From contig DKFD01000011.1 in NCBI GenBank assembly GCA_002452735.1, positions 1-64,000 on the forward strand: a DNA stretch of 64,000 bases. The letters run 5' to 3'. This document shows, piece after piece, positions 16,726 to 42,084 of this stretch. The position numbers and the translations under genes were made by a program. Origin of the DNA: Patescibacteria group bacterium UBA6805 (GTDB lineage: Bacteria; Patescibacteriota; Minisyncoccia; Minisyncoccales; Minisyncoccaceae). How positions within the stretch are numbered: the stretch's first letter is position 1; every line of letters starts with the position of its first letter. A model generated the notes under the pieces. That model did no database searches and was not told the DNA's origin. It saw only the letters and a program-made list of their open reading frames with translations.

Positions 16726-17861
16726 AGCTTGATGGGCATTACCACGTATAAATAACTGGCGTCCCCTATCGGCCTTATCGCCGCCGGTCCGTCGTCGCCC
16801 TGGAATTCAAATAAGATTTCCGAGCTCTTAATGGTGGTCAGCCCGTCAATCAGGAATTTCCAGTTAAAAGACACCTTAAGAGAACTTCCTTCTATTTTGG
16901 CGGGAATATTCAAATTGGCCTCTCCGACGTCCGCATCTTGGCTGAAAATCTCCACCTCTTTTTCTTTGGCCGCTATCTTCAAAACCACCTCATTGGTTCT
17001 GCCGCCGAAGATACCGGCTGTTTTTATTTGCCTCAAAAATTCTTCCTTATTCACCGTAATCTTGGTTTTGCCTTCTCTGGGAATAATTTCCTGATAAGAA
17101 GGGTACTCGCCTTCAATTTGCCTGGAAATCAAATTTATTTCCGGATGATTGACTGTTGACAGAAAGGTTTCAAATAAAACTTGGGATTCGGAAAAATAAA
17201 TTCTCAGGGTTTTTTCTTCGTCGCTGACTATATTAATCAACTCCTTGGCCGCTCTCTGGGGAAGAATGAAACTGACCCTCTCTTTGAACATGTTTTTGTA
17301 TCCCTGTTTATTGGAAAAAGTTATCACCTTCTCTGACAACCTGAAGCTGTCCGTGGCCACCAGCCTGACTAGGTCTTTTTCAAACAAGAAATACACGCCC
17401 GATATTTCCGGTTTTATTTGGGACAAGCTAACCATGTCAACCACACTCATCAACCCGTCTTTTATTTTCCTTGCATCAATCTCGATGAAAACGTCTTTGG
17501 AAAAAGAGGGAATAATGGGAAACTCATCGGCGGTAAACCCCTTAATTTGGGTTTTGTAATTTTTCCCCTCCAGCACCAGGGTATTTCCCTTTTCTTTGAT
17601 ATTAACCTTTTCGTCGGACAAAGACCCTGTTATCTGACCCAAAAGCTTGGCTGGTATCGTAATTTTACCTTCTTTCTCGGTCTTGCACATTCCCCACCAC
17701 TGAACACCCAACTCAAGGTCGGTGGCCGATATTTTCAAAAAATTGGACAGAGCCTCTATTAAAACATTGTCCAGAATCGGCAGGGTTAAATTTTTACCCG
17801 TCACTCTTTCCGTGATACTTACCCCTTTTTTTAGTTCTTTGGTTAAAATTGTAAGGTTCAT
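16722..17861 (-). CDS. dnaN: DNA polymerase III beta subunit (sliding clamp)
   Basis: 379 aa; three-domain clamp layout, position directly downstream of dnaA. Confidence 0.9.
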   Translation of the reverse strand: MNLTILTKELKKGVSITERVTGKNLTLPILDNVLIEALSNFLKISATDLELGVQWWGMCKTEKEGKITIPAKLLGQITGSLSDEKVNIKEKGNTLVLEGKNYKTQIKGFTADEFPIIPSFSKDVFIEIDARKIKDGLMSVVDMVSLSQIKPEISGVYFLFEKDLVRLVATDSFRLSEKVITFSNKQGYKNMFKERVSFILPQRAAKELINIVSDEEKTLRIYFSESQVLFETFLSTVNHPEINLISRQIEGEYPSYQEIIPREGKTKITVNKEEFLRQIKTAGIFGGRTNEVVLKIAAKEKEVEIFSQDADVGEANLNIPAKIEGSSLKVSFNWKFLIDGLTTIKSSEILFEFQGDDGPAAIRPIGDASYLYVVMPIKL

Positions 17862-18083
17862 ATTATTATTAATTTATATTTTTATTTAAAACTTATTTAT
17901 TATTGATTTTGGTCTTTGGGTGGACAAATTCTTTTTCCCCAGTTTTTAAAATGAATTTTTGCATGATTTCCTCTGGAATAATTGTGGAGAAAAAGAGGGG
18001 TTTTTATGAAATAATTTTTGGTATTTTTTTCCGACAAATTTATTCGATGTTTTCCCCCCTTTGTTTCCCCGGCTTATTAACAA
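17862..18083. other. candidate oriC part 1: AT-rich unwinding element (17862-17915) plus DnaA-box-like sites (GGGTGGACAAA, TTGTGGAGAAA) in the dnaA-dnaN spacer
   Basis: seen in sequence; a bipartite origin around dnaA is the classical arrangement. Confidence 0.45.
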
Positions 18084-19445
18084 TTAATTACTATATACTC
18101 TTTGTAAAATCAGTTCTATTTCTTGGTGTGTTTTTTCGTCTTCTTCCGCCGTTTTTTCAATTAATTGGCAGGCGTGGATGACCGTGGTGTGGTCTTTTCC
18201 TCCGAATTTTCTCCCTATCTCGGAATAAGAAAGCTTCAATTCTTTTTTAAGGAGAAACATGGCAACTTGCCGGGGCCGGGAAAATTCCTTTTTTCTGGAA
18301 ACGAAAAACATGTTTCCGTTGGGGATGTCGTAAAACTCGGTGACGGACTGGATTATCTTCTTGGAATTGGTTATTTTTGAAGGAGAAACAATAATGGTTT
18401 TTAACAGCTTTTTCGCATCTTCCAGGCTCGGGCTTTTATTGTTGGCCTTTTTGAAGATTATTAAGCGGTTCAGGGCGCTTTCCAGTTCCCTGATGTTTCT
18501 TTGGATGTTGTTGGCCATAAAATCAAGAATGTCTTTCGGCAAATCAACGTTTTTCTCCTCAGCTTTTTGTTTTAAAATAGCCGCTCTTGTCTCAAAATCC
18601 GGAGAAGAAATATCGGCGATCATTCCTCCTTTAAACCGCGACTTCAGCCTTTCGGTGATGGCCGGAATAGTGCTGGGGTGCCTATCCGAAGACAAGATAA
18701 TTTGTTTGTTCTTTTGATATAAAGAATTAAAGGTGTGGAAGAATTCTTCCTGGGTTTTGTCTTTGCCAGCGATGAATTGGATGTCGTCTACGATTAAAAC
18801 GTCCAACTCCCTTAAATTTTTTTTTAATTCCTCGACGTTGTGGTTCTTAATTGAATTTATGATAATGGAAATCATTTTTTCGGCCGGAAGATATTTTACT
18901 CTTTTTTCGGGAGCATCTTCCTTTATCTTGTTGCCGACGGCCTGGACCAAATGGGTTTTGCCCAGTCCCACTCCCCCGTAAACGAATAAGGGGTTGTAAT
19001 TTTTGCCCGGCTCTTCCACCACGGCCATGGCCGCGGCGAAAGCCATTTCGTTAAAGGGCCCGACAATGAAGTTTTCAAAAACATAACGGGGGTTTAGGTT
19101 GGTTTCTTTGTTGACTTCCAATTCTTTAAAGCCCAACTGTTCGGTCAAAACATCCTCCTTGTTGACAGACTTCTTGCCGCCCATCGTCTTTTTCGTTTTC
19201 TTGGGGTCAACGACGAAGGAGATATTTTTAATGTTCTCGTCGGTGGAATGGAGTATTTTTAAAATGTCTTTTCCGTATTTTTGTTCCAGCCATTCCTTGG
19301 AAAAAGAATTGGAAACAGAGACAATAACGGTATCGTTTTCCAGAGACAATATTTTGGTGTTGGCAAACCAGGTGGCGAAATTAGCCGGAGAGATGTTTAG
19401 TTGTATTTGGGCCAGCACGGACTGCCAAAGGTTTTCTAAATCCAT
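18084..19445 (-). CDS. dnaA: chromosomal replication initiator DnaA
   Basis: 453 aa; AAA+ Walker A 'GGVGLGKTHL', C-terminal DNA-binding domain 'SYSEIGRKFGGKDHTTVIHA'. Confidence 0.95.
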   Translation of the reverse strand: MDLENLWQSVLAQIQLNISPANFATWFANTKILSLENDTVIVSVSNSFSKEWLEQKYGKDILKILHSTDENIKNISFVVDPKKTKKTMGGKKSVNKEDVLTEQLGFKELEVNKETNLNPRYVFENFIVGPFNEMAFAAAMAVVEEPGKNYNPLFVYGGVGLGKTHLVQAVGNKIKEDAPEKRVKYLPAEKMISIIINSIKNHNVEELKKNLRELDVLIVDDIQFIAGKDKTQEEFFHTFNSLYQKNKQIILSSDRHPSTIPAITERLKSRFKGGMIADISSPDFETRAAILKQKAEEKNVDLPKDILDFMANNIQRNIRELESALNRLIIFKKANNKSPSLEDAKKLLKTIIVSPSKITNSKKIIQSVTEFYDIPNGNMFFVSRKKEFSRPRQVAMFLLKKELKLSYSEIGRKFGGKDHTTVIHACQLIEKTAEEDEKTHQEIELILQRVYSN

Positions 19446-19639
19446 AATCGTATTTTTATTAATGCCTATTCATTATATTAGATAAAGTCAAGAAAGGCAA
19501 AGGTCCTTGAATAATAAGGGATTTTTCAGAGAGTGTGGAAAAAGGGTGGACAAAACGTTAATAAGGCGGAAATGTTTGTTTTGTTGACCATAAGGATTTT
19601 TTCTGTTATATTTAAAGCATTAAATTAAAGTTTTAAATT
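19446..19639. other. candidate oriC part 2 / divergent promoter region with DnaA-box-like TGTGGAAAA and a second GGGTGGACAAA copy
   Basis: motif GGGTGGACAAA occurs at about 17918 and about 19545, on either side of dnaA. Confidence 0.4.
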
Positions 19640-19777
19640 ATGAGAGTTACAACGTACAGGCCGAAAAAGAAGAAAAGAAAAAGAACGCACGGTTTTATTA
19701 AGCGTTCAAAGACTGTAAGCGGAAAGAAGGTTTTAAAAAGGAGAAGAGCCAAGAAAAGAGCAAAGCTTACGGTTTAA
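19640..19777 (+). CDS. rpmH: 50S ribosomal protein L34
   Basis: 45-aa ORF not in the ORF track: [45 protein letters not shown]; canonical rpmH-rnpA order. Confidence 0.85.
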
Positions 19778-19783
19778 TTTATA

Positions 19784-20122
19784 ATGCTGCCTAAAAAAAA
19801 CAGGCTGAGAAAAAAAAAGGATTTTGAAAGGGTTTTCAAAGAAGGAAAAAATGCCAGAGGGACTGTTCTTTATTTTAAAATCTTGGAAACCAAAGAGCCG
19901 TCGTCAAGGATAGGATTTATCGTCAGCAAGAAAATTTCCCCGAAGGCCACGGAAAGGAACAAAATAAGAAGAAGAATGAAAGAGTCTGTCAGGGCGGCGC
20001 TGGACATGTTAAAAAACAGCTGGGATATAATCATTATCGCTTCGCCGCAGATTAAAAAAAGCAGTTTTGAGGAAATCAGGCGAGATACAGAAAAAACTTT
20101 TAAAAATATAAACAATGTTTGA
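19784..20122 (+). CDS. rnpA: ribonuclease P protein component
   Basis: 112 aa, basic; 'RLRKKKDF', 'IGFIVSKKISPKATERNKIRRRMKE'. Confidence 0.85.
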   Translation: MLPKKNRLRKKKDFERVFKEGKNARGTVLYFKILETKEPSSRIGFIVSKKISPKATERNKIRRRMKESVRAALDMLKNSWDIIIIASPQIKKSSFEEIRRDTEKTFKNINNV

Positions 20123-20831
20123 GTTTTTTTCAACAACCTTCAATATTGTGCTTTATCGGCCCATACTGAATCTTTTAATTTGGCTTTACGGCGCCATCGG
20201 AAATTTCGGCTGGGCCATAATCGTTCTGACGTTGATCGTCAAGATTCTTTTGAATCCCTTAAACAAAAGGGCCCTGGAATCGCAAAAGACGATGATGAAA
20301 ATACAGCCCAAGATAAAAGAAATACAAAGCAAATTCAAAGACAAAGAGCAGCAGGGCAGGGAAATGTTGAAACTTTACCAGGAAACAAAGTTTAATCCGT
20401 TCTCCGGGATATTTCTTCTTTTTCTTCAGTTGCCCGTTCTTTGGGCGCTTTTCAGGGTTTTTCAAAGCGGGCTGGATTTTGAAAAGACAAACGGGATGCT
20501 TTATTCTTTTATTTCCCTGCCCCAGGCGATAAACCCATATTTTTTAACGATTAATCTGGCCGAGCCGAGCATTTTTTTGGCCGCGATTACAGCCGTTGCC
20601 CAGTACATACAGGTAAAAACAGCAGCGCCTCCCCGGGAGGAAGCCAAGGAAAAAAGCAAAGACCAGGCGGAGAGGATTTCCCAAATGGTTCAGAAGCAGA
20701 CGATGCTTTTTATTCCGGCTTTTACCTTTTTCGTTCTTTTTAATCTGCCGGCAGCCATTGCTCTTTATTGGTCGCTGACCACGGTTTTAAATATTATTCA
20801 GCAAAAGAAAATATTTGAAAAACATGAATGA
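20115..20831 (+). CDS. yidC: membrane protein insertase YidC (short form)
   Basis: 238 aa; 'GWAIIVLTLIVKILLNPL', multi-TM, position after rnpA. Confidence 0.85.
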   Translation: MFEFFSTTFNIVLYRPILNLLIWLYGAIGNFGWAIIVLTLIVKILLNPLNKRALESQKTMMKIQPKIKEIQSKFKDKEQQGREMLKLYQETKFNPFSGIFLLFLQLPVLWALFRVFQSGLDFEKTNGMLYSFISLPQAINPYFLTINLAEPSIFLAAITAVAQYIQVKTAAPPREEAKEKSKDQAERISQMVQKQTMLFIPAFTFFVLFNLPAAIALYWSLTTVLNIIQQKKIFEKHE

Positions 20832-21297
20832 AAAAGAATTATCAGAATCCATAGAGGAGATAGTCAAGGATTTTTTCCGCCGAGCCGGTTCAGAGGCGGA
20901 GATTAAAAAGATATCTCTGGAAGAATCGGACGGCCGGGAAGTTTTAATGTTGAATTTGAAAACCAAAGAAGCCAACATTTTCATCGGCAAACAAGGACTG
21001 GTTTTGTCCGACATCCAACTTCTTTTGCGAAAGATGATAAAGAAAAAAACAGACAAGGATTTTTTCTTGAATCTGGACATAGATGATTACAAAAGATATA
21101 AAGAAGATTATTTGAGAGAAATGGCTCAGGGCGCCGCTGATGAAGCAATCGGCCAAAAAGAAAAAAAAGAGCTGCCCTTGGCTTCTGCTTTTGACAGGAG
21201 GATAGTGCACCTGGAGCTTTCAAAAAGAAAAGACGTTAAAGTGGAAAGCGAGGGAGAGGGAGAGGAAAGAAAAATAATAATTACGCCTTTGGACTAA
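20815..21297 (+). CDS. Jag/KhpB-like RNA-binding protein (KH + R3H)
   Basis: 160 aa; C-terminal R3H-like 'FDRRIVHLEL'; canonical position after yidC. Confidence 0.65.
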   Translation: MKNMNEKELSESIEEIVKDFFRRAGSEAEIKKISLEESDGREVLMLNLKTKEANIFIGKQGLVLSDIQLLLRKMIKKKTDKDFFLNLDIDDYKRYKEDYLREMAQGAADEAIGQKEKKELPLASAFDRRIVHLELSKRKDVKVESEGEGEERKIIITPLD

Positions 21298-23075
21298 ACA
21301 ACTTCCTGGTTGTATTGCTTGGCTTCCCTTATTTTAATTACCTCTTCCGGAGAAGTGGTGATTATTTGGTCTTCAGTGTACGAGGCGACTACGCTGATGG
21401 CTACGTGTTTCTGGCCGGCGAAGAAAATGCCCTCGCCCACCGGGCTTTCCAGAAGAAGGTATTTTTCCTGGTCGGTTAAATTGAAAGTTTTCTGGACCAG
21501 GTCTATGGCTGCCGGGCTTTGCTTTAGAAGAAGCTGAAGAGAGGAGTTGGTGATAATGGGCTTGCCGTATTCGGAGCCGATAAAATCGGAAACGTCCTGG
21601 GTGATGGTGGTTACCCCCAGCCAGTACTTTCTTGCTCTTTTGCAGATGCCATACAAGAAAGATGCTCCGTCCGCTTCTTTCATCATCCACCATGCTTCGT
21701 CAACAACAAGAATTCTTTTCTTCATGCTGACCCTGATGGCGTTCCAGATGTAGCGCATAACAATAAACATGGCAATGGGTCTTAGCTCGTCTTCCATGTC
21801 TCTTATCCCGAAAACAGCCAGGGATTTGTTCATGGAAATATTGGATTGGTTGTTGAAGAAGGCCGAGAAAGTTCCCTTGGTGAACTTTCTCAGTCTTTCC
21901 ACCAGAGACTCTGCTCCCTGCATCGTGTCCAGAACAGATTCCAGGTCGGAAAGGGTGGGAATGTTTTCTTTCCATTTTTTGGGGTCGGAATACGGAGTAA
22001 TGTCTTTGGCGGCGTAGGTTTCCATAATCGCTCGGTCCATAATGGCGTCTTCTTCCGGCGTCAGTCCCCCGAGCATTATTCTGGTTAAGCCGACCAAGTT
22101 GATAATGTTGCTTCTCAATACGTCTTCCGGGGTTTCGTCTTCCCTCGGTTCCGGCAAGTCAAAAGGATTGATGTGGTTATCGGAGCTCAGGGATATTTTA
22201 AAAAAAGAACCATCCACGGCATCGGCCAGGGGCTTGTACTCGTTTTCCGGGTCGATGATTATACATTCGGCTCCCAACATCAAAGACCTTAATATTTCCA
22301 GCTTTACGGCATAGGATTTGCCCGAGCCGGATTTGGCGAAGATGACCATATTGGCGTTTTCCAAGCTGAAGCGGTCGAATAAAATCAGGGAGCTGTTGTG
22401 CTTGTTGACACCGAAGAGAATGCCTTCGTTGGAGCTTAAATCAAAAGAGATGAAAGGAAACAAGCTGGACAGGGGGCCGGTATTCAGTGTGCTATGGACT
22501 TGTAACAAATCCATTCCGTAGGGGAAGCAGGACAATAAGCCCTCTTTTTGCTGGAGCAGGGCTGGTTTTATATATATCAGTCTTGATTCCAGCATTGACC
22601 TTAAGGACGTTTCCACGGTCTCCAAATCTTTTTTATTGTCAGCGTAAATGGTGATATACAGTCCGAATTTGAACATTTTTTCCTGGGCGGTCTGGAGCTT
22701 GTCTCTTAAATCTTCGAGGTCCTGATAAGCGGTTTCCAAGGACGGGTCCCTGATCAGCCCCTTTTCCTGCCTTTCGATTATTTCCGACTGCACCTCGGTT
22801 ACGCTTTTTCTTAATTGCCTTAAAATGGTCCCGGTTTCAATGGGGTGGAAGAAGAAAGACAAATCAAAGGGTACGTCCATATTAATGATAGGAGACAGCC
22901 ATCCCATTGTCAGATAACGGGGATAAGAAAAAACAAAATAGGTTTTGGAGAATTTTTCTTCAATCCTTACGTAGTTCTGATCAACCTCAATGGCAGGCGA
23001 AGCAATAATGTCTTTGGCGCCGGTGACTTCTTTTTCAAAAAGTTTGCCGGGCTTTGGTTTGTTGAATAATGCCAT
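21294..23075 (-). CDS. VirB4/TrbE-family type IV secretion ATPase, C-terminal ATPase portion
   Basis: ORF 21294-23153; Walker A 'FAKSGSGKSYAVK', Walker B 'ILVVDEAWWMM'; probable start at internal Met 'MALFNKPKPGKL' (23075). Confidence 0.75.
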   Translation of the reverse strand: MALFNKPKPGKLFEKEVTGAKDIIASPAIEVDQNYVRIEEKFSKTYFVFSYPRYLTMGWLSPIINMDVPFDLSFFFHPIETGTILRQLRKSVTEVQSEIIERQEKGLIRDPSLETAYQDLEDLRDKLQTAQEKMFKFGLYITIYADNKKDLETVETSLRSMLESRLIYIKPALLQQKEGLLSCFPYGMDLLQVHSTLNTGPLSSLFPFISFDLSSNEGILFGVNKHNSSLILFDRFSLENANMVIFAKSGSGKSYAVKLEILRSLMLGAECIIIDPENEYKPLADAVDGSFFKISLSSDNHINPFDLPEPREDETPEDVLRSNIINLVGLTRIMLGGLTPEEDAIMDRAIMETYAAKDITPYSDPKKWKENIPTLSDLESVLDTMQGAESLVERLRKFTKGTFSAFFNNQSNISMNKSLAVFGIRDMEDELRPIAMFIVMRYIWNAIRVSMKKRILVVDEAWWMMKEADGASFLYGICKRARKYWLGVTTITQDVSDFIGSEYGKPIITNSSLQLLLKQSPAAIDLVQKTFNLTDQEKYLLLESPVGEGIFFAGQKHVAISVVASYTEDQIITTSPEEVIKIREAKQYNQEVV

Positions 23076-23080
23076 ATTGT

Positions 23081-23722
23081 TTATGTTATAATTTCCGGCG
23101 GCAGTTCGGGATAATATCCCAATTCGGCCTGCTTCGGATGGTGCAAGCTCCACAAAAGCTCAATTAATTCTTCCGTCCCCAGGGGCACTGATTTCAAGCC
23201 GCATCTTCTCAGTCCCAAAGAAATATATTCCATTCTTTGCCAGAGCTGGTATTTTCCGGTCTGGAAGCCCTGCTCGGTCAGAGTGGAGCGGGTGGTTTGT
23301 TTCTTTCCCTCTCCCCCACTGGTCAGGCTCGGGAGCTCAACCAAAGGATAGTAAGGGACGACGATATAGAAATTTTTATTCATGATTGACCCGCCGGCCA
23401 CCAACTCTTCAACGAACCGTCTGTAATCAGAGGTTTGGATTTTCAAGAGTTCGTTTTTTTGCTCGTCTTCCAGTTTTTTGATTTTTTCCACATAGCCGGT
23501 GATGTTCACTTTCCTTGAGCTCACGATTATCTGGCAGGAGAAGTCTAAAGAATTCAAGAAGTTTTGAAAATTGAAAATGATGGCGCCCTGCTCTTCTTCC
23601 GATTTCAAGGCGAAATTAATTGAGGAAATAAGAAGAATCCCTTTTAATGATTTGTCTTTCATGATCATCACTCCTTCGCGGATTTGCTCAACCGGTATAA
23701 ATTGTTGGGAAGATATGGCCAT
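23081..23722 (-). CDS. VirB4-family N-terminal domain as a separate ORF (split gene, frameshift or genuinely bipartite)
   Basis: 213 aa; 'GILLISSINFALKSEEEQ' region resembles the N-terminus of Gram-positive-type VirB4 proteins; ends 5 nt before the ATPase ORF in a different frame; the combined length of about 806 aa is normal for VirB4. Confidence 0.55.
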   Translation of the reverse strand: MAISSQQFIPVEQIREGVMIMKDKSLKGILLISSINFALKSEEEQGAIIFNFQNFLNSLDFSCQIIVSSRKVNITGYVEKIKKLEDEQKNELLKIQTSDYRRFVEELVAGGSIMNKNFYIVVPYYPLVELPSLTSGGEGKKQTTRSTLTEQGFQTGKYQLWQRMEYISLGLRRCGLKSVPLGTEELIELLWSLHHPKQAELGYYPELPPEIIT

Positions 23723-24141
23723 TATTTTTCAAAAAATATTTTTTTACTTAAGGATTCGATTTTTCCACTCGGCCTGAGACTAAGCTTTGTTTTCTCTTCT
23801 TTTTTCGGCTCAACGGATTTTTTGGACGTTCTGGTGGGGAGAAAAACCGGCGATGCCTTTCTGTCCCACCTATATATCTTACTGCCTACGGTGAAGTTGA
23901 AGAAATTCTTGGAGACAACGGCGATTCCCAGTCCCTCGACTTTCAAAAAGGCCAGAGCCAGAGAAGAGCCGAAAAGCGCGCCGCAAACCAAGATGTATAA
24001 AAAAAAGTTTGATTTCCCCAGGGAAAAATACAGAAAAAAGCACAGTCCCAGAGCCATGCCGATATACACGCTCTGTTTTAAAGTAAAGGGACCCAGAATT
24101 TTAGGATCGTGCTCTATGAATTGGGGAACTTGAAACTGCAT
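23722..24141 (-). CDS. PrgI-like (VirB3-like) small two-TM T4SS protein
   Basis: 139 aa; 'MQFQVPQFIEHDPKILGPFTLKQSVYIGMALGLCFFLYF' matches the PrgI-family start pattern (VPQ...f.gLTlrQ) followed by two TM helices; located directly upstream of VirB4. Confidence 0.5.
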   Translation of the reverse strand: MQFQVPQFIEHDPKILGPFTLKQSVYIGMALGLCFFLYFSLGKSNFFLYILVCGALFGSSLALAFLKVEGLGIAVVSKNFFNFTVGSKIYRWDRKASPVFLPTRTSKKSVEPKKEEKTKLSLRPSGKIESLSKKIFFEK

Positions 24142-24143
24142 AA

Positions 24144-24581
24144 TTAAAAGGTTTCTCTATAAGGATCTTTGGGAGAGTCGCCCGTCTCCTTCTTTTCCTT
24201 CTTTATTATATCATCTTTTTTGATTTTTGCATCTTCTTTCGGGATATTTCCTTCTTTTTCTTCATGAAGCTTGTCCAAAGAAACTCTTAAATACTTGAAA
24301 ATGGCCAGGTTTAGCTCTCTGGCTATCTTATTGGCAGTCTGTTCGTCAACGTTCAGTTCCAGTTCCAGAGTAATGGGGAATTCTTTCAGGGGCAAAAGAC
24401 CCATCAAAACTCTGCCCGTGTATTTGGCGGCGATGGATATCTTTTCTTCATCCAGTCCCATATCAGCGCATATTTTTTCAACCAGCTTGTTGTTTTTTTC
24501 GGAGAACACGGCTTCTTTCAAGTCTTCGGGCAGTTTTTCATATGTTTTCCAAAAGAATTCTTTGGTATATTCTTGTTCCAT
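24144..24581 (-). CDS. hypothetical protein
   Basis: ORF 24144-24659, likely start 'MEQEYTKEFF'; no recognisable motifs. Confidence 0.35.
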   Translation of the reverse strand: MEQEYTKEFFWKTYEKLPEDLKEAVFSEKNNKLVEKICADMGLDEEKISIAAKYTGRVLMGLLPLKEFPITLELELNVDEQTANKIARELNLAIFKYLRVSLDKLHEEKEGNIPKEDAKIKKDDIIKKEKKETGDSPKDPYRETF

Positions 24582-24708
24582 AAAATTACTATATTTTACC
24601 ACAAACAGCGGGGAGGTTTCAAGGCGTGGGGAGCGAGATGTTGACAAAAACCAGCACATTGTTTATTATTATATCAGTCCTTTGACAGGATGATACGGAG
24701 ACTTAACC

Positions 24709-25107
24709 ATGAGAAAGCAGAAAATCTGGATGGTCCTGGGTCTTGCTGTTGTCCTAATAGCAGCCCTGGTTGTGTGCGGATGTATGAACATGAGCGCCTC
24801 GTTCGCTCCCCCTGTTTCCCACTCCAATGAAGGGGTAATGTTTAAGGGGGTTGTTTCTTCAGTGACAATTTCTCCCCATAGCGCCCTGAACCGTATCCCA
24901 GCATATGTGGTGAGCGGTGGCGAGGCAGGCGGAACCGATTTTGCTATAGGGAACCTGGGAGATGCGAGGATCGTAATAAGAGACCCGCTTCTCATAGAGA
25001 AGATGGAAGATCTCAGGAAAAATCCAGGCCGCTATTGCGAAATAATGGCCGGACAAGTGACAGGAACCGAATATTGGGAAATAACCGATATTACGGTAAG
25101 TGCATAA
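24709..25107 (+). CDS. putative lipoprotein
   Basis: 132 aa; signal peptide with lipobox 'LVVCGC'; locally elevated GC. Confidence 0.45.
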   Translation: MRKQKIWMVLGLAVVLIAALVVCGCMNMSASFAPPVSHSNEGVMFKGVVSSVTISPHSALNRIPAYVVSGGEAGGTDFAIGNLGDARIVIRDPLLIEKMEDLRKNPGRYCEIMAGQVTGTEYWEITDITVSA

Positions 25108-25133
25108 CTTTATGTTTATGCACCTTTTTCTTT

Positions 25134-25162
25134 TACAAAAGATTGACAAAATAAGAGATTTA
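25134..25162 (+). promoter_or_regulatory. candidate sigma70 promoter TTGACA-17-TATCAT, followed by strong RBS AAAGGAGG before the 25238 ATG
   Basis: sequence motifs. Confidence 0.45.
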
Positions 25163-25237
25163 GTTTATCATTAAACAGCCTTTATTAAAGGCATTAATGT
25201 AACTTGAAAACCGAAAAAAAGAAAGGAGGAAAATTGT

Positions 25238-26614
25238 ATGAAGGATTTTGAGAAAACAGGAAAAACCGGAAAGAATGTTGAGCAAAAAGAAAACGAATTC
25301 GCCGTTTTTTCTAAGGGGATTATCGTTATTCTTGCCCCTATTTTAATTGCGTTTATGGCCTACGCGCTTGGACAGTGGAGTCCGTGGGCTTGGTTCTCTG
25401 TTATTTTTTCGTATATTTACATCCCATCTTATATCCTTGCTTTAGTGCTTGTTCCCCTTGTTCTTTATTTCTATTGGGCCAAACACAACGTCATAGGATA
25501 TTTCATTGAAGAAGGATACTGCATAATTTTCGCATGGAGCGGAGAAAATTTCGCCGGGGCAGACCTGCGATACGGCAAGGCGCGCTTTAATGAAAATTGG
25601 GACGTCGAGACGCCCGAAACTTCCGAAGAAAAAAAACCAATGTGGCAAAGAGGGAAAAAGATACGCATCGGAGGAATGGGTTTTTATCTCTGGCCTTTTA
25701 AAAGAATATACGAATATAATATGACTTGGGCCAAAAAGACGGAAAAGGGGGAAAGAGTTTCCAAAACCGAAAAACTTTCCCGCGTTCTTCTGAAGCCGTA
25801 CGTTTATTCTCTCGAGTATCAAAACATGGAAGATGCGGACAGAATGCCCATCAATATTGAGATAGCGGCTGAAATGCAAATAATAAACCCCATTAAAGCC
25901 CTATTCGGAGTGGAAAGATGGTATAGAGCCATCTTAAACATGACAGAGGGCGAGGTAAGGAAGTATATCGGGGAAAACCTTTATATAAAACTGATTAACC
26001 GTAAAAGTCAGGAAGAAGTGGGCGAAAAAATTAAGGAACAAATGAAAAACGTCTTGCAAGATTTTAATGCAGAGTATGGTGTCAATGTAAAGAGAATAAA
26101 AGTAATGCAAGTGGTTCCTTCAAGAAAAGAAGATGTTGAGGCAACTCTTAAAGCAATGCAGGCTGAAAGAGAAAGGGAGCGAGTAATAATCACAGCCCAG
26201 GCCGAAGCGGTTAAAATAGGGCAAGAACTTACGGGTGCCGTCATGCAGGCGCTGAGCTTGATGACCGGCATAAAAACAACCGAGCTCCAAGCGGAATTCA
26301 TCGCTGCTCCCGAGGCGTTTGAAAAAAAATACGGGGTAGCGTACAGGGAGGCCTATGACTTTGCGAAAAGAAGGATGGGCTTCGTCCAAAAAGGACGCAT
26401 TGAAATCATAACAGCCGATGGCTGCGACAAAGAAGGAAGTGCTTGTCCCAACAGCGGCGGCATAAATACGGACAAGTTGATAGAGGTTATAGCGGCGGTT
26501 GAGATGACGAAACAGGCGCTTTCCCAAAGGCCCGGGAGTCCTGCCCGGGAAGGAAGCGAAAAGAATCCTTTGTCTCTGGAAGAGAAAAAAAATAAGCTCG
26601 GACTAAAATATTAG
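25238..26614 (+). CDS. SPFH/band-7 (stomatin/prohibitin/HflK-like) membrane protein
   Basis: 458 aa; N-terminal TM helices, SPFH-like core 'VNVKRIKVMQVVPSRKEDVEATLKAMQAERERERVIITAQAEA'. Confidence 0.55.
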   Translation: MKDFEKTGKTGKNVEQKENEFAVFSKGIIVILAPILIAFMAYALGQWSPWAWFSVIFSYIYIPSYILALVLVPLVLYFYWAKHNVIGYFIEEGYCIIFAWSGENFAGADLRYGKARFNENWDVETPETSEEKKPMWQRGKKIRIGGMGFYLWPFKRIYEYNMTWAKKTEKGERVSKTEKLSRVLLKPYVYSLEYQNMEDADRMPINIEIAAEMQIINPIKALFGVERWYRAILNMTEGEVRKYIGENLYIKLINRKSQEEVGEKIKEQMKNVLQDFNAEYGVNVKRIKVMQVVPSRKEDVEATLKAMQAERERERVIITAQAEAVKIGQELTGAVMQALSLMTGIKTTELQAEFIAAPEAFEKKYGVAYREAYDFAKRRMGFVQKGRIEIITADGCDKEGSACPNSGGINTDKLIEVIAAVEMTKQALSQRPGSPAREGSEKNPLSLEEKKNKLGLKY

Positions 26615-26623
26615 TCCGATTTT

Positions 26624-27109
26624 TTATAACAATTCTTGGCTTATTCCCTCGGGAATTTTTCCTTTCTGCTCTAACGAAGAAGAATTTTCTTCCGCAGAAT
26701 AATCTTCATTGCCGTCTTCTTTCGTAAAGTCCCAAATTATCTCCTCGTTGTTTTTTATGGCTTGCGACACTTCCTCAATTATTTTTGGGTCTATATTTAA
26801 TTTTTCCAAAGCGGACTTTAAGATTTCGCCCAAATCATTAAAAGTTATTTCTTTATTGATTAGTTTTTCTATTATTTTTACAATCGCCACGGAGGCGGAT
26901 ACTTCTTCAATGGGCCTTTTAAGAGCAAGACACTCTTTAATCTTTTGGCTATGTAAAAATTTTGCCACCCTTCTTTCTTCCGGGCTTTCAGCCGATTGCA
27001 AGTTCTTCTCCAAAACAGGGTCATTCTCAACGAGGTCTTTTTCCAGGCCATGCCGAACAACAATGTTTTCTATAAAGTTTAATGTTTCTGTCGAGGGTTT
27101 TTTTCTCAT
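26624..27109 (-). CDS. hypothetical acidic protein
   Basis: 161 aa, no motifs; lies between the VirB6-like gene and the rest of the T4SS-like cluster. Confidence 0.35.
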   Translation of the reverse strand: MRKKPSTETLNFIENIVVRHGLEKDLVENDPVLEKNLQSAESPEERRVAKFLHSQKIKECLALKRPIEEVSASVAIVKIIEKLINKEITFNDLGEILKSALEKLNIDPKIIEEVSQAIKNNEEIIWDFTKEDGNEDYSAEENSSSLEQKGKIPEGISQELL

Positions 27110-27125
27110 ATTTGTTGATATAGAA

Positions 27126-29159
27126 TTAGGATATGGAGTTGGTAATAATGTCCAGTTTTTTGGTTATTTCTTTTTTCATGTTTTTTGCCTCTGTCGTCGT
27201 TAAATTATTAAGTTCTTGAATTTTAGCATTGGCCTGAGCCGTCCATATCTTATTGCTTTTTACGGCTTCTTTTTGTTCTTCGCTTAGGTTCTTGAAAAGA
27301 TTATAGATTTGCCTTTGGTTGAGGCCCGTTACATGCTTTTCAAAATCAAAACCGTCAAAAGTCGAGGGGTTTTGTAGCGCGTCTCTTTGCTGTTGCGTCC
27401 CGCGTTCATCAAAATATTTTCGGTCTTTTTCTGTTAGATTTGCCGCAACGAAAATATTCGTCAGAGAATCTGTCCTTATTTTTTCCTGTTTTTCTTTGGC
27501 ACTCATTTTTGACATAATGTCTGCCGTGGTTTGTTTTCCGTCCGTCAGCTTTTCAGCCTCTTGGGGAACAAACTTGGCAAACTCTTTTTTGCTAAACCCG
27601 TAGTTTCCGGCCGTCTTAATGTTTTTCGTTAAATAATCTATTTCTCCGTCATTAAGGTCTTTTTTCTCCATTAGTATTTGCAATGCCATGTGCTTTTTTA
27701 TGTTATCTTCTCTTGTCATGGGGGTAATGCCGCTAATTCTGCGCAATCCGTCGGTTGTTAAATTTTCCATCGGCTCTTTAAACTGTTTGAATTCTTTTTC
27801 TTCCATTCCTGCCGCAGTTCCCGGTTTTTCAAGGCCGATATCTTCTTTTCTCCTTGTTACCCATTGTTTTGCTCCTTCTGTTCGCTCCAGCGGAGATTTT
27901 ATCATCCCAGTCAAGCCGGCCGTGCTTGCAACCCTGCTTTTCTCGTCCACTTTGGCGGTCAGGGCTTCCTTAACACCGGTTTTTGTTCCGCCATACAGTC
28001 CCCCGCCCAAAACATAGGCGGCTCTTTTGGCCAGTCCATCGTCTTTAGTAAGAGCAGCCTGGGTTTTTGCTCCGGCATAGGCTCCGGTGGCGAATCCTGC
28101 TCCGGCAGCAGTCAGTCTTCCGAAGGCCTGCCTTCCATATCCGGTTGCCATTTCCGCTATTTGTCCGCCCGAAGAAACTGTTATGAAAAACCCGACAACA
28201 AGGAAGGCAAGGGGGACAATAAGACCAAGTAAACCACCAAGTCCAACAAGTCTTCCTCCTGGCTCTGAAACAAGCGGACTAATGGCCATCGTGGCCATTG
28301 TTTTATTTGACAGGTAGAGAGAGAAGCTGGCCGGAATACCGATAACCGTCCATTGAAGGAAATTGTTCCACCATTCATCCCAATAAGTGATGCTGGGAAA
28401 TATTTTTTGGAGATATTTTCCTTCGGGAAAAACCTTGCTGGCAAAGGCGATGGGAGAAACTATGACCAAAATCCACAATACAATGTGCCTGGCCAAGAAT
28501 ATGAAAGCGTAAAGGAAATATATGACAGTGGCGAATATGGCGAAAAGAAGGTAAGCGATAGGAAAAATGGGATCGTCAAAAGTAAAAGATTTGGACCGTA
28601 GTCCTTCGAGAATTATCTTTGCCATGTCGTAATTAATTCCACTGGTTAAAAATAAACCCATTAATTTGTTGGCAAAATCAATCATCACGCCGGCGATTAC
28701 CGGGGTGAAATTAATCAAAAGAGCTATGCCGACGAAATTAATCAATGCTTTTTTGGCTTTTGTTTCCTGAAAGCCGAGAATGATACTGATGGCAACGGCC
28801 ACCAAGCCGAAGACAAGAGCAACGTTGGCCAGGTTTCTTACCGTTTCCCATCCCATTTTGACGACGGGATTGTCTTGAATGGTGGTTCCCATGAAATCAG
28901 GACTGATAACCCAGGCCAACAAATCGTTGCCAACCTGCAATATTCCTTGGGCTATGCCAGAAAGCGTAAGGGTAAAGACAGCAAGAATCGCAGACCCTAT
29001 ATTAACAGAGTCTTCGTTTCCGCCAACAAATTGCGCTATCTTACTAATCATGGTGGCCCCGGCTATAATCTCAAACAGTTGAGCCCGGGCCAGAATAGGA
29101 GTAAGGATGAATAATAGAGAAAGGAAAATTATAAAAAATGTTTTGATTGAATGTTTCAT
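27126..29159 (-). CDS. VirB6/TrbL-like polytopic membrane protein with long K/E-rich C-terminal tail
   Basis: 677 aa; signal peptide, at least 6 predicted TM helices in the first 330 aa, Gly/Ala-rich linker, hydrophilic coiled-coil-like C-terminus; genomic association with VirB4. Confidence 0.5.
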   Translation of the reverse strand: MKHSIKTFFIIFLSLLFILTPILARAQLFEIIAGATMISKIAQFVGGNEDSVNIGSAILAVFTLTLSGIAQGILQVGNDLLAWVISPDFMGTTIQDNPVVKMGWETVRNLANVALVFGLVAVAISIILGFQETKAKKALINFVGIALLINFTPVIAGVMIDFANKLMGLFLTSGINYDMAKIILEGLRSKSFTFDDPIFPIAYLLFAIFATVIYFLYAFIFLARHIVLWILVIVSPIAFASKVFPEGKYLQKIFPSITYWDEWWNNFLQWTVIGIPASFSLYLSNKTMATMAISPLVSEPGGRLVGLGGLLGLIVPLAFLVVGFFITVSSGGQIAEMATGYGRQAFGRLTAAGAGFATGAYAGAKTQAALTKDDGLAKRAAYVLGGGLYGGTKTGVKEALTAKVDEKSRVASTAGLTGMIKSPLERTEGAKQWVTRRKEDIGLEKPGTAAGMEEKEFKQFKEPMENLTTDGLRRISGITPMTREDNIKKHMALQILMEKKDLNDGEIDYLTKNIKTAGNYGFSKKEFAKFVPQEAEKLTDGKQTTADIMSKMSAKEKQEKIRTDSLTNIFVAANLTEKDRKYFDERGTQQQRDALQNPSTFDGFDFEKHVTGLNQRQIYNLFKNLSEEQKEAVKSNKIWTAQANAKIQELNNLTTTEAKNMKKEITKKLDIITNSIS

Positions 29160-29229
29160 GGCTTGCCCTTATTGTTTTTTTTATGGTATAATTATTATAC
29201 CATTACTTTATTTTACGTTCAATATCCGC

Positions 29230-29529
29230 ATGTTAAATCTTAAATTCAGTCCGGAAACAGTGATTATGCTGACCTTCGCCGTTATCATAGACCTAATCGG
29301 GATAATCCTTATCTGTTTCGCCCTGGATGATTTCGGGGTTCTGGACATAGTGAGTGGCGTTATAATAGGTGGCTGGATGCTTTTCAGAAGGGGCCGGGTG
29401 GTGAATATCAAGACTCAAAAAAAGCAAATAGTGCGCTTCCTGGCGGGAATGGGGATAGAGATAACCCCCTATCTCGGCGCTCTTCCGGCCGTGACAGTCA
29501 TTACGCTTTTAACTTTAAGGGAAAAATAA
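29230..29529 (+). CDS. small 3-TM membrane protein, first gene of the pilin-fusion operon
   Basis: ORF 29107-29529; an internal start 'MLNLKFSPETVIMLTFAVII' avoids overlap with VirB6; candidate extended -10 TGGTATAAT at about 29187. Confidence 0.35.
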   Translation: MLNLKFSPETVIMLTFAVIIDLIGIILICFALDDFGVLDIVSGVIIGGWMLFRRGRVVNIKTQKKQIVRFLAGMGIEITPYLGALPAVTVITLLTLREK

Positions 29530-29530: not shown

Positions 29531-32500
29531 ATGGACAAAAAGAAAATTATTTTTATTTTAATCCTTCTCGTTCTTCCTTTTTTTGTTATGGCTCAAGCCG
29601 GCCTGGAGAACGATTATCCGGCTATTGGCGGGACCCAACCCACGGACAGTTCTTCCCCGGCCGAATTCTTAAAATACATTTTCAACCTGGGAATTCTTTT
29701 CGGCGTCATTGCCGCTGTTTTCGTTTTGATTTCCCAGGGCGCGACCATGCTCATGGCCAAAGGAGAAATGGCCCTGGTCATTCTGGCTCAAGAAAAAATC
29801 AAAAGGGTTTTTGTCGGCCTCCTGATTCTTTTAGGCTCTTACATCATTTTAACAGCCATTAATCCCGATTTGAAGGTTATAAAATTCAGTCCCTTGGAAG
29901 TTTTTGAAAACATAATAAACAAGCCCGGAACCGAAGAAGAAACCTACCCTCTGTCGGAATTCGAGGAAATCCCCCTGGGCTCCATTCTGGAAAGCATTCT
30001 AGCCGCCAATTCTTCGGAAAGAATCTACAACGACAGAACCGAAGAGCTTTGCTACGCTTACGATGAAAACGGAGATACGATTGATAGAAATGACGACAAG
30101 AAGATAGACGAGAACGACCTGCTAAAAGGAATGGATATGTATTATTGCCTGTCGGAACTGAACAAAGCCATAATCAAGAAGATAAGAGATTTGAACGGAG
30201 GCAACTCTTTGTGTAACAGTCCCTCCAAAGGCGGGCCGATTGAAGAAATGAAAACTTTGATTGCCAGCGGCTGCAGCTGTCAGGCTTGTGATGTCTGGAA
30301 ACCAAATTATTATTGTCCGGGCTCCGAATGTTATCAGTGTATGACCTATGCCTGCGGGGAATGCAGTACTTGCTGTAAGGACCACTGCTCTTGTTGCGGC
30401 CGGGCTTATTACGCCCCGGATTTGGGTTGCCAACAGGTTAACGATAAATCAAGAGACCCTTGCGCGGCGGTCAGGGACGGCATAGATTGCGCCAGAAACG
30501 AAATCAAGCTGCGAGTTGACGGAAACGGATACGGCGTTCCAGGAGCGGCCGAGGATAAATGCGCTTTTACCAGATATTTCAACGAGAATGAATATAAGTT
30601 TTTAACAATCAGCGAGGGAAGGGAAAGGTTGGAATCGTTCAGAAACTATTTTCAGAACCATTTGACGGACTTGATAAAAGCGGAATCAATGATGAAATCT
30701 CCTTATGGGGAGAGAATATCGTTGGCCGAGTTTGAGGCCATTCGGTCCAAAGACCAATACAAAAAGACGGTGGCCAAAGAATTCCAAAACACCAACAGCG
30801 ATTATTCTTATAATCCGGTAAAATACTGTCGCGATTTCAATTGTACGGAATACAAAAACGGAGACGAAAAAAATCTTTGCGTGTCCGGAGGGAGAGTTGA
30901 TTTGACCCAGGAACTGATGGAAAAAGAAAAACTGATAGACCCCTTGTATGATAAGGAGCCCGAGATTTTTGACAAGAGAGTCTGCCAAGTAAATCAAATA
31001 CAAAACGGAAACGATACAGAGAGTTATTATTACGACGGCGACGGAGCGACCTTCTATTTCCAGGCGGGGTACAAGACAAAAAAAACAAGCAATCAAGAAA
31101 AATGCTCAATTGATTCCGCCATTGAGAAAGAAACCATCAAGAGCTTGATTCCTATTGGAGAAACGGTTGATGCTACGGAAAAATTCGCTGAAGACGTTTT
31201 GGTTTTAATAAATCAAATTATGTCGGAAACCCGGGAGACTATTGAGAAAGCAATTCAGTTAAGTGCCCTGCCAGAGAAGTGTGATTGTTCTCAGGGCTGC
31301 AGCAACAGATCTGACTGCAGATGTTCTACCAGCGAAGAAGGATGCACCAGCTGTTCTTGTGGTTCGTGTCTGGCCTGCGATGCCAGATCCCAAACGCTGT
31401 GCACTTGCTGTAAAGACTGCGAAGAGGTGGAGGTCGTTGATGAGAATATTCCCAGTCCTTGGGACGATATGACCAGTTTTGGCTATTGCCCGTCTTGCCC
31501 GTCCCTTTATTCGACCGGAGACGTGAACGAGTACTGGACCTATTGCCCTTGTAGCGGAATCCTGCTTTTTCCCAATATATCGCTTATTAACGACCCTAAA
31601 ACCCAGTTTTGTTATTTGGGAGAAGAGCTTGGTTCTTATTGTTCTTTAAGTTTTCAAGAAGAAAAATGCCAAACAGCATTTAGAAGATTGCCTTTAATGT
31701 GCATGCTTTCAAGAGTAAGCGCTCCCAGATTTGTAAATTATACCATAGAAAGCTGTCAAGCAGTCAGCCAGAACCCAACCGTGGCTCCCATTCTTTGCGG
31801 AAGCGGTTTGAATACTTATTACACTCAAAAAAACATTTTAACGTTAAAACCCAAGTCAGAAATAATCGTTGTTTGCGAAGGACAGCAGCCGGTTAATCAA
31901 GAAGCAATAAATAATTTAAACGTCCACTGCAGCACGAGTTGCAAGGGTGAACCGGGATGTCAAGGACGTCTTGATTGGATAAGCGCCGATGAATTTATCT
32001 TAACAAATTATTTCTGCAAAGGCCCCATGGCTCCGAAAGACCCCAAGGGCCTAATAGGGAGAGACAGTACGCCTTATAATAATTCCATGTCCATTTTTTT
32101 ACCCGGCGGCCATGAAATAGTCAGCATCGAGGCCATTCCTTTGACCACCGGCGCGAGGTCTGTCAAGTATTATCATCTCGGGGGTTGCTCCACGGAGTAT
32201 ACCGACGATGGACCGGTGGAGCATTGCACAGAAGCGGGCTACAACACCTATCATTTTTGGGACGGCGGTTATGCTTTGAAAATCAAGGTTGTCAATACGA
32301 TAAGAATAAAACGGGGAGAGATTGACAATCAGGCTTATTACGTCTGTCCCTATAATGACATAAAAGACAGGCAGTGCCGGATATTCAAATACAGCGACGA
32401 TGTAGAGCCGAATTATCCGGAAAACATTGATACGGATTACGACTGCCGGGATGAAAATTCTTCCGGCGCGGGATATCTTCAGAAGATAGAGCTTTTGAAC

Positions 32501-35467: not shown

Positions 35468-36240
35468 AGAGAAAGCTTAATCCAGTCGTCAACGCTTAGT
35501 TCCTGTGCTCTTGCTTTTGAATTAAGCCCGTTCTTCTCGAGAGCATCTTCGATTCTTTCTTTTTTTATATTTAGACCGACAGAAAGGTTGTTAGCCAGTT
35601 GCTTGCGGGGATGGGAAAATCCGGTCCTGACCAAAGCGAAAAATAAATCGCTCCTCTTTCTTTTAATGGGAGTGATTCTAATGATTGCGCTGTCAACTTT
35701 GGGCTTGGGCCAAAAACAATTCTTGGAAACGAAAGCCGCTACCTCGGGCTTGGCATAGTAATTGACGGCAACAGCCAGAAGATTCATTCCTTTTGGTCGG
35801 GCACATATCCTTTGAGCCACCTCTTTCTGGATTAAAAGCACTATTTCCCTTGGCTTATTTTCCATTTCCAGAAATTTCCTTATCAGAAAAGAAGTCAAGT
35901 AATAAGGGATATTGGCCACTACTTTGTATTCTTTTTTCATTTCCGGAAAACACTTAAGAGCGTCTCCGGTCACGATCTCTACGTTTTTCATCCCTTCTTC
36001 TTTTAAAAGCGCCGCCAACCCCTCGTCTTTTTCAATAGTTATCACTTTTTTTGCTTTTTTTGCCAATTCCCTGGTCAATATTCCTGTCCCGGGCCCGATT
36101 TCCAAGACGATATCATTTTTGTCGACGCCAGCCGTCCTGACGATTTTCTTGACAATGTTTTCATCAATTAAAAAGTTCTGACCCAATGATTTTTTGGGCT
36201 TTATCCCCTGTGTTTTAATTGTGGAAAACGGGCTTGACAT
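35434..36240 (-). CDS. rsmA: 16S rRNA (adenine1518/1519-N6)-dimethyltransferase
   Basis: 268 aa; 'LGQNFL', SAM motif 'VLEIGPGTGILT', 'NIPY'. Confidence 0.9.
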   Translation of the reverse strand: MSSPFSTIKTQGIKPKKSLGQNFLIDENIVKKIVRTAGVDKNDIVLEIGPGTGILTRELAKKAKKVITIEKDEGLAALLKEEGMKNVEIVTGDALKCFPEMKKEYKVVANIPYYLTSFLIRKFLEMENKPREIVLLIQKEVAQRICARPKGMNLLAVAVNYYAKPEVAAFVSKNCFWPKPKVDSAIIRITPIKRKRSDLFFALVRTGFSHPRKQLANNLSVGLNIKKERIEDALEKNGLNSKARAQELSVDDWIKLSLYFSKENIVKE

Positions 36241-41551: not shown

Positions 41552-41577
41552 ATTTTTATTATTTATCTTTTTCTTGT

Positions 41578-41650
41578 GCCCCGTGAAGGACTCGAACCTA
41601 CAACCTTGAAGTTAAGAGCTTCCTGCTCTGCCAATTGAGCTAACGGGGCT
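41578..41650 (-). tRNA. tRNA-Lys (anticodon CTT)
   Basis: manual fold: acceptor GCCCCGT/ACGGGGC, D-arm GCTC..GAGC, anticodon loop CTCTTAA, T-loop TTCGAGT; one G-A at 27-43 and one T-T in the T-stem; no encoded CCA. Confidence 0.65.
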
Positions 41651-42042: not shown

Positions 42043-42084
42043 AAGCTTTTTTGAGTATAGCGGTTTTAAGTAAAAAAATCAAGG

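Follow-up and report, generated by a model that had tools for sequence, protein, structure and literature searches.

A relaxase-less, pilin-carrying type IV secretion locus beside dnaA in a Paceibacteria genome

The function of the Patescibacteria type IV secretion system (T4SS) is a main open question about how these ultrasmall parasites exploit their hosts. We addressed it for a locus of Patescibacteria group bacterium UBA6805 (assembly GCA_002452735.1), carried by the first 64,000 nucleotides of contig DKFD01000011.1 (forward strand, positions 1 to 64,000; hereafter the window). A preliminary description had placed there, at 21294-29159, a minimal T4SS-like apparatus with VirB4, PrgI/VirB3-like and VirB6-like proteins, typical of the candidate phyla radiation and with its function left open. 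What is this machinery, and what could it be for? Profile, fold and synteny evidence and the literature agree with its assignment to such an apparatus. The locus is almost certainly a chromosomal, vertically inherited Patescibacteria T4SS in a Paceibacteria/Minisyncoccia genome. That it would build a pilus for contact with a host, a mechanism proposed by analogy, is about an even bet. The T4SS identity joined to this mechanism is the best overall explanation, and we hold it with good confidence. The word minimal does not stand, as pilins, a TrsD-like piece of VirB4 and a syntenic LysM-M23 peptidase also belong to the system or accompany it.

Components of the secretion locus

The gene map was based on family scans of the window's long, non-nested open reading frames (ORFs), with additional scans for small ORFs and tRNAs. 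For comparison, species-representative genomes were scanned with a VirB6 alignment, yielding 80 loci, mostly from metagenome-assembled genomes (MAGs) of Paceibacteria/Minisyncoccales and including those of Ca. Microsyncoccus archaeolyticus PMX.50 and the cultured Minisyncoccus archaeiphilus PMX.108. The window proteins were then searched by tblastn against 45 non-redundant loci of at least 19 kb, and genes were counted within 10 kb of virB6. The ORFs of the 21294-29159 segment and their coordinates were as first described.

The ORF at 21294-23153 on the minus strand matched Pfam P-loop_TraG (9.4e-27) and AAA_10, and its product exceeded the cutoff of 325 with a score of 361.9 bits on the NCBIfam model NF045971 ("VirB4-like conjugal transfer ATPase, CD1110 family"). 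It also matched the VirB4 C-terminal domain in PDB 4ag5 (1.6e-39) and contains a Walker A motif (KSGSGKS, 22314-22334) and a Walker B motif (ILVVDE, 21696-21713), which confirms the earlier identification of a VirB4-family ATPase with both motifs. The ORF of 619 residues reported for it is present, but this reading starts at a GTG and overlaps the upstream gene, and the orthologues have 588-595 residues. The start is more likely the ATG at 23075, giving a protein of 593 residues (21294-23075). With VirB4 proteins from Paceibacteria MAGs and from Ca. Microsyncoccus and Minisyncoccus, it shares 63-95% identity, the range for the cultured, archaea-parasitising Minisyncoccus and Microsyncoccus being 77-86%.

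The NF045971 match spans profile positions 183-733 of 752, and the first ~180 residues of canonical VirB4 are missing from the protein. The soluble 213-residue product of the neighbouring minus-strand gene (23081-23722) matched VirB4 models N-terminally only, at positions 2-118 of NF045971, 104-233 of NF045975 and 7-124 of TIGR00929. As the two proteins cover complementary parts of three VirB4 models, the canonical N-terminus is encoded separately, the 213-residue protein corresponding, by these alignments, to its first ~120 residues in the form of a TrsD-like polypeptide. The protein matched the TrsD model NF041427 (TrsD/TraD) weakly, at 22.5 bits, and its orthologues carry a precomputed PF26593 (TraC-like) label. 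The gene was found in 37 of the 45 loci, with 52-93% identity. A search of PDB sequences with the family profile returned nothing meaningful. TrsD is reported to be the commonest T4SS component in Patescibacteria (Quinonero-Coronel et al., PMC12102498). The two unknown proteins first counted in this cluster are in fact three further minus-strand ORFs, of 213, 171 and 161 residues, the first being this TrsD-like protein.

The product of the next gene (23722-24141, minus strand; 139 residues) has two transmembrane (TM) segments. On its own, it reached 23.3 bits with Pfam PrgI (PF12666), where the gathering score is 27. Orthologues were taken from 38 related loci; every one of them matched PrgI at E<=0.01, the best at 9.5e-10, and TcpE was matched as well by four of the 38. 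Because of these matches and of its place directly upstream of trsD-virB4, the sequence assignment to PrgI/VirB3 appears sound, in keeping with the PrgI-like two-TM protein initially proposed. The PrgI family profile found nothing meaningful among PDB sequences.

The 677-residue protein encoded at 27126-29159 (minus strand) had no match at E<=0.1 in Pfam or NCBIfam. Within its family, two of 70 homologues matched PF04610 (TrbL) at 4.3e-7, and many have weak precomputed matches to PF19590 (TrbL_3). The profile of the 70 homologues retrieved no VirB6 from PDB sequences, only spurious G protein-coupled receptor/BRIL and coiled-coil matches. The protein was modelled with AlphaFold2 from 88 sequences, with a predicted local distance difference test score (pLDDT) of 80.5. 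In the model, a helical membrane bundle (residues ~54-330, pLDDT ~90) is followed by a disordered Gly/Ala-rich linker (352-446) and a confidently folded, all-helical C-terminal domain (447-677, pLDDT ~96). Its top structural match was TrwI, the VirB6 protein of R388, with a sequence identity of only 11-17%. Since the direct scans were empty, the assignment rests on this fold comparison and on the weak family-level matches, and the model points to an extended VirB6-like polytopic membrane protein. The long charged tail first attributed to it is a linker and a folded domain, while its polytopic, VirB6-like nature stands. Hydropathy indicated the signal-like N-terminus and about seven hydrophobic segments, the automatic scan calling five; on a count of seven, the C-terminal domain would be cytoplasmic. 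The term extended VirB6 is that of PMC12857230, and SEML1_0013 of Southlakia is described as combining a TrbL/VirB6-like annotation with a C-terminal ARM-repeat domain (PMC10633639).

The cluster had been said to face a pilin operon. This operon encodes three fusion proteins of 1123 (29531-32902), 441 (32922-34247) and 404 residues (34253-35467), all on the plus strand, in each of which a signal peptide and a VirB2-type module of two helices precede a further 300-1000 residues. The 441-residue protein scored 30.0 bits with T4SS_pilin (PF18895; gathering score 26.6), and a homologue of it was found at all 45 loci. The 404-residue protein was just below the gathering score, at 22.3 bits, and aligns with the other pilin modules. 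Over residues 1-130, the largest protein has 36% identity with the pilin module in the 441-residue protein (E 2e-18), and one of its orthologues has a faint PF18895 match. A stand-alone pilin of 130 residues is encoded 12 kb away (41650-42042, minus strand); it scored 53.3 bits with PF18895 and matched TrbC/VirB2 weakly (22.4 bits). In total, the locus has four genes for VirB2-type pilins, in divergent and neighbouring units beside dnaA, and three of these pilins carry large fused domains. The earlier statement was correct, and by their sequences the facing pilins are of the VirB2 type and belong to the T4SS. The 300-1000-residue domains of the fusions are predicted to be extracellular, and the stand-alone protein is a candidate major pilin. 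Of the genes of unknown function in archaea-parasitising relatives, those for T4SS pilins are reported to be some of the most highly expressed (PMC10936435).

The 1123-residue protein had no domain match in Pfam or NCBIfam. Its 66 cysteines occur in dense runs, for example CSCQACDVW...CGECSTCCKDHCSCCG, an unusual feature among monoderm surface proteins. The gene of the stand-alone pilin is flanked by tRNA-Lys (41576-41649) on one side and tRNA-Arg (42083-42156) on the other, all on one strand, the whole arrangement covering 41576-42156, and it may be cotranscribed with them. In several related loci, a homologue of this pilin gene is found near pnp.

The first gene of the pilin operon (29230-29529, plus strand) encodes a small membrane protein of ~99 residues, which we call tm100. 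It has three hydrophobic segments according to the family alignment and two according to a hydropathy scan, with conserved acidic residues. It was found in 32 of the 45 loci, always directly upstream of pilin-fusion genes, and it moves with the pilin block in the loci where that block is downstream of virB4 (L042, L044, L049, L055 and L078). No family and no PDB sequence was matched by tm100, and hhalign found it unrelated to PrgI. It is a candidate pilin-handling factor.

Downstream of the pilins, a plus-strand gene (36365-37336) encodes a peptidoglycan peptidase with Pfam matches to Peptidase_M23 (3.1e-25) and LysM (1e-22), syntenic in 37 of the 45 loci and occupying the place expected of a VirB1 analogue. 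No VirB1-type SLT or CHAP family was matched among the scanned ORFs. Rather than a homologue of VirB1, the LysM-M23 peptidase is a candidate for its functional replacement; LysM/M23-containing candidates or substitutes for VirB1 have been proposed in Patescibacteria (PMC12102498). The relaxase, VirD4/TcpA, VirB11 and VirB8/9/10 families were likewise without match among the scanned long, non-nested ORFs of the 64 kb, as the preliminary description had noted for VirD4, VirB11, VirB1/8/9/10 and relaxase. According to PMC12102498, homologues of VirD4-type coupling proteins are common in Patescibacteria and usually encoded far from virB4; their absence from 64 kb hence does not imply that the genome lacks one.

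The genes missing from the 64 kb make conjugation unlikely, as those of a relaxase and a coupling protein are among them. They are compatible with another role, the import of DNA or nucleotides by an organism unable to make nucleotides. T4SSs that import DNA with neither relaxase nor coupling protein exist, namely ComB of H. pylori and the archaeal Ced system. The window VirB4 also matched the model of the DNA-import protein CedB at 47.9 bits. However, the cutoff of that model is 700, so that the match reflects general VirB4 homology; CedD was matched at 19.8 bits versus a cutoff of 600, and the locus contains neither a match to a Ced or ComB partner family nor a competence gene. The T4SS of class ABY1 is reported beside comF, recG and radA (PMC12102498), in favor of import. 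In Southlakia, by contrast, deletion of comEC abolished transformation and left the cells viable, whereas the T4SS there is essential (PMC12857230), making transformation-type uptake less likely as the essential role. Taken together, we regard an import machine as improbable.

Gene order and conservation

The T4SS genes of the segment are on the minus strand, as first described, but they do not form an uninterrupted block. They are arranged in two units, virB6-u161 and u171-prgI-trsD-virB4 (u161 and u171 are described below), separated by two plus-strand genes, a lipoprotein-like ORF (24709-25107) and a gene coding for an SPFH/Band-7 membrane protein (25238-26614). Promoter-like and terminator-like consensus sites agree with this layout, as pattern matches only. 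Between virB6 and the tm100-pilin operon, at 29163-29222, consensus matches form a divergent pair, with TTGCCC-18-TATAAT on the plus strand and TTGAAC-17-TATAAT on the minus strand, both with a TG. Another promoter-like pattern (24622-24593) precedes the ATG of u171 at 24581, within the longer, 171-residue ORF. Where the convergent SPFH and u161 genes meet, 9 bp apart, a perfect hairpin with a 9-bp stem and T-runs on both strands (26598-26619) looks like a bidirectional terminator.

On the virB4 side, the locus adjoins the plus-strand genes rpmH (19640-19777), rnpA (19784-20122), yidC (20115-20831) and jag/KhpB (20815-21297) and the minus-strand genes dnaA (18084-19445) and dnaN (16722-17861). 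Of these, dnaA, rnpA and yidC were named by tblastn and by the precomputed Pfam labels of syntenic orthologues rather than by direct scans. A location about 2 kb from oriC had been proposed. The end of dnaA is indeed 1.85 kb from virB4, but the origin itself was not revealed by DnaA boxes. Allowing one mismatch, the consensus TTATCCACA was found 11 times in the window against 13.8 expected, and the dnaN-dnaA and dnaA-rpmH spacers (17862-19639 region) each hold a single such box. As the boxes are not enriched, the position of oriC is deduced from the gene order dnaN-dnaA / rpmH-rnpA-yidC-jag alone. On the pilin side follow ksgA (35434-36240, minus strand), the LysM-M23 gene, a gene for a DksA/TraR-type zinc-finger protein (37345-37710, minus strand), a 463-residue coiled-coil protein (37785-39176, minus strand) and pnp (39186-41288, minus strand).

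Comparison across the related loci showed that this order is largely kept. The arrangement pnp-dksA-lysM/M23-ksgA-pilins-tm100<>virB6-...-prgI-trsD-virB4-jag-yidC-rnpA-dnaA-dnaN recurs in most of the 45 loci, among which are those of Ca. Microsyncoccus archaeolyticus and Minisyncoccus archaeiphilus. Pilin-module genes were present in 45/45, virB4 and prgI, like trsD and the LysM-M23 gene, in 37/45, and ksgA in 36/45. For the 11 loci that also hold dnaA, the median identity was highest for VirB4 (83%), followed by DnaA (77%), TrsD (76%), PrgI and u171 (53% each), tm100 (42%), VirB6 (35%) and the pilin fusions (33-38%). Conservation therefore follows a gradient from inside to outside, the cytoplasmic VirB4 motor being more conserved than DnaA and the exposed parts diverging fast. 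This pattern fits an essential, host-facing machine. The VirB4 and DnaA values, together with the recurrent gene order, indicate a vertically inherited chromosomal system.

These data bear directly on whether the locus could be an integrated conjugative element or its remnant, that is, mobile DNA-transfer genes lying near dnaA by chance. VirB4, TrsD and PrgI are homologous to conjugation proteins of Firmicutes (CD1110/CTn2, pGO1 and pCF10), as expected of such an element. However, the 64 kb contain no match to a relaxase, coupling protein, integrase or VirB11, and the GC content of the locus is like that of its flanks. The T4SS genes are interleaved with housekeeping genes (ksgA, dksA, pnp and tRNAs), they occupy the same position in the same order in dozens of species-level genomes, and VirB4 is more conserved than DnaA. 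The fixed position, the interleaving and the conservation pattern rule out such an element, and we rejected it on synteny and conservation, leaving it hardly any probability. The plasmid-like conjugative context envisaged at the outset as a possible alternative was thus not found, as no relaxase was detected within 64 kb and the locus is vertically inherited.

Accessory and neighbouring genes

Two soluble proteins of the minus-strand units are built alike. The first, u171 (24144-24581, 145 residues from the ATG at 24581), was delimited by family alignment and synteny and lies directly upstream of prgI in 32 of the 45 loci. Its small helical domain is joined by a charged, disordered linker, low in complexity and variable in length, to an invariant peptide at the C-terminus, D-x-Y-R/K-E-x-h, a motif carried by u171 only among the window ORFs. 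The second, u161 (26624-27109, 161 residues, helical), is encoded directly downstream of virB6 and was found in 14 of the 45 loci; its conserved extreme C-terminal peptide is G-[IL]-x-Q-E-L-L. The two families aligned with each other by hhalign (probability 75%, E 2.5e-5), suggesting weak paralogy. By the same method, neither was related to the VirB6 C-terminal domain or to TrsD. No known family, PDB sequence or fold was matched by either protein; u171 had no match in Pfam, NCBIfam or PDB sequences, and its AlphaFold2 model (pLDDT 67.5, ~85 in the core) had no significant Foldseek match among PDB structures. u171 is a candidate accessory subunit.

The build of u171 and u161 resembles that of hub-docking proteins. 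As adaptors or substrates, they might dock on the VirB4/TrsD ATPase or on the VirB6 C-terminal domain and so replace the missing coupling protein, with tm100 as a dedicated pilin-handling subunit. This scheme is speculative and we would not expect it to hold; if true, u171, u161 and tm100 would make up a route for substrate recruitment and pilin assembly found only in Paceibacteria T4SSs.

The same two proteins bear on a further possibility, that the locus encodes a contact-dependent translocator injecting effector proteins into the host, the pilin-module proteins serving only to span or anchor to the envelope. With their invariant C-terminal peptides, u171 and u161 could be its substrates or adaptors. 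Wang et al. suggested protein export because the relaxase and the coupling protein are missing (PMC10633639), and Ptl and Brucella VirB are examples of effector systems that have no coupling protein (PMC12102498, PMC12857230). However, no effector has been identified, and u171 and u161 have neither secretion-signal homology nor an informative fold match. The window does not separate export from a role in pilus formation or adhesion, and the two are compatible. Effector injection is the stronger of the functional alternatives that we weighed, with perhaps one chance in a few.

The SPFH gene between the two units codes for a protein of 458 residues that matched Pfam Band_7 (6.4e-11) and, below its cutoff, the HflK model (37.8 bits). 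It is kept between the two T4SS operons, on the opposite strand, in 28 of the 45 loci. The protein is a candidate membrane scaffold, and its membership of the system is suggested by synteny only. A term search of the main text of PMC12102498 returned no mention of SPFH, Band or stomatin. Likewise, the literature passages covered, by searches that were not aimed at them, do not mention the u171/u161 peptides, the link between tm100 and the pilins, or the pilin fusions of 300-1000 residues. The sequence details of u171/u161, tm100 and SPFH may thus be new, if incremental, and these four genes are conserved accessories worth including in an experimental dissection of the system.

Two other genes were considered as hidden T4SS parts and rejected. 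A 434-residue T2SSE-family ATPase (9175-10479, plus strand), the sole other ATPase of secretion type among the scanned ORFs, scored only 53.6 bits with the VirB11 model (cutoff 250). It reached 421-428 bits with GspE/PilB models, below their cutoffs, matching only their C-terminal two thirds; the N-terminal domain is missing, and the gene adjoins those of a DHH-like protein and ruvB. The E/K-rich 463-residue coiled-coil protein was examined as a coupling protein or relaxase; it is of low complexity and has neither a P-loop nor a family match. A homologue of it was found near a dksA-like gene or pnp in 13 of the 45 loci.

Further along the window, a minus-strand cluster (42159-48947) comprises three PlsY (G3P_acyltransf) paralogues, two stand-alone DegV proteins, a FakA-like Dak2-DegV fusion and a CarS-like cytidylyltransferase. 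Such a lipid-scavenging cluster fits dependence on host fatty acids. At 54191-58597 (plus strand), a protein of 1468 residues combines a Fibrobacter succinogenes major (FISUMP) domain with Kelch repeats, of which there are at least 11, and is likely to be a large protein of the cell surface.

Possible function and comparison with known systems

How might these components work together? In the proposed host-contact mechanism, PrgI and the TrsD-like protein would tether a VirB4 hexamer to the membrane, by analogy with R388, and VirB4 would pull pilin modules out of the membrane. As in R388, VirB6 would provide the platform for assembly, and the LysM-M23 peptidase would open the wall. The product could be a VirB2-type filament or a pilin-anchored surface array or layer, of which the large, fast-evolving C-terminal domains of the pilin fusions would be the adhesin-like, host-binding parts. 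Such a system would have no role in conjugation.

Several points weigh against this explanation. To our knowledge, pili of this type have yet to be observed in Patescibacteria, and we know of no substrate. Pilins fused to domains of 300-1000 residues cannot pack like ordinary VirB2, and the pilin-module proteins may simply be membrane-anchored surface proteins. Monoderm T4SSs normally need a VirB8-like protein, and none was found within the window. The window copy of PrgI is below the threshold of its family, and the VirB6-like protein had no direct match in the family databases. Lastly, a coupling protein or a relaxase may be encoded elsewhere in the genome, as our search covered the 64-kb window.

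Comparison with known systems situates the locus more firmly. It shares with R388 Trw and Agrobacterium VirB the VirB6 fold, TrwI being the top match, and the VirB2/TrbC-type pilin family. In the R388 model, VirB3, VirB4, VirB6 and VirB2 reportedly form the inner-membrane module of pilus biogenesis, with VirB3 and the VirB4 N-terminus at the membrane and VirB6 as the site of pilus assembly. Unlike those systems, the window has no VirB5, VirB7, VirB9, VirB10, VirB11 or VirD4; its VirB4 is split, and its VirB6 has an extra C-terminal domain.

The closest conjugative relatives are monoderm. As in the MPF-FATA systems (Tra/Trs of pIP501/pGO1, Prg of pCF10 and CD1110 of CTn2), there is no outer-membrane core, and VirB4 scores above the CD1110-family cutoff. 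The order PrgI/TraC-like, TrsD/TraD-like, VirB4/TraE-like of pIP501/pGO1 is the same as that of the window locus. We conclude that the locus is derived from monoderm conjugation machinery of the MPF-FATA, pIP501/pGO1-like type. It differs from these conjugative systems in having no relaxase, coupling protein or detectable VirB8-like (PrgL/TraM) protein, and in being chromosomal and vertically inherited whereas they are mobile. It also has VirB2-type pilins, which Gram-positive T4SSs are described as lacking (PMC12857230).

The best match is the T4SS of Patescibacteria themselves. A 2025 survey of 3,035 Patescibacteria genomes reported VirB4 in 2,417, mostly in a single clade nested in monoderm MPF-FATA, accompanied by TrsD, PrgI/VirB3, VirB6 and arrays of divergent VirB2-like pilins (PF18895/PF04956); relaxases were almost absent, and in Paceibacteria/Microgenomatia the neighbourhood consisted of dnaA, dnaN, rnpA, rpmH and ksgA (PMC12102498). 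In Southlakia epibionticum (SEML1_0006-0019), transposon sequencing by Wang et al. (2023) showed the T4SS genes, together with the pilin array, to be essential to growth as an epibiont; this T4SS is described as having neither coupling protein nor relaxase and the order VirB4 / hypothetical / PrgI (PMC10633639). Among T4SSs, only the Patescibacteria system, in Southlakia, is known to be essential to its owner's growth (PMC10633639, PMC12857230); it was presented as the first essential T4SS and the first of monoderms with potential pili, a pilus conduit being speculated on (PMC12857230). The window locus resembles this clade and Southlakia in its VirB4, TrsD-like, PrgI/VirB3 and VirB6 proteins and divergent PF18895 pilin array, in the lack of a nearby relaxase or coupling protein, in its neighbours dnaA, dnaN, rnpA, rpmH and ksgA, in the nearby LysM/M23-type wall hydrolase and in the extended VirB6, whose C-terminal domain is helical; the order of VirB4, the gene in the TrsD position and PrgI is also that of Southlakia. 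As far as the published passages extend, there is no essential difference. The locus is thus an ordinary member of the described relaxase-less, pilin-carrying T4SS of Patescibacteria, the architecture and dnaA proximity of which were already published. Rather than a new kind of system, it represents a clean and complete Paceibacteria example in which every core part can be assigned.

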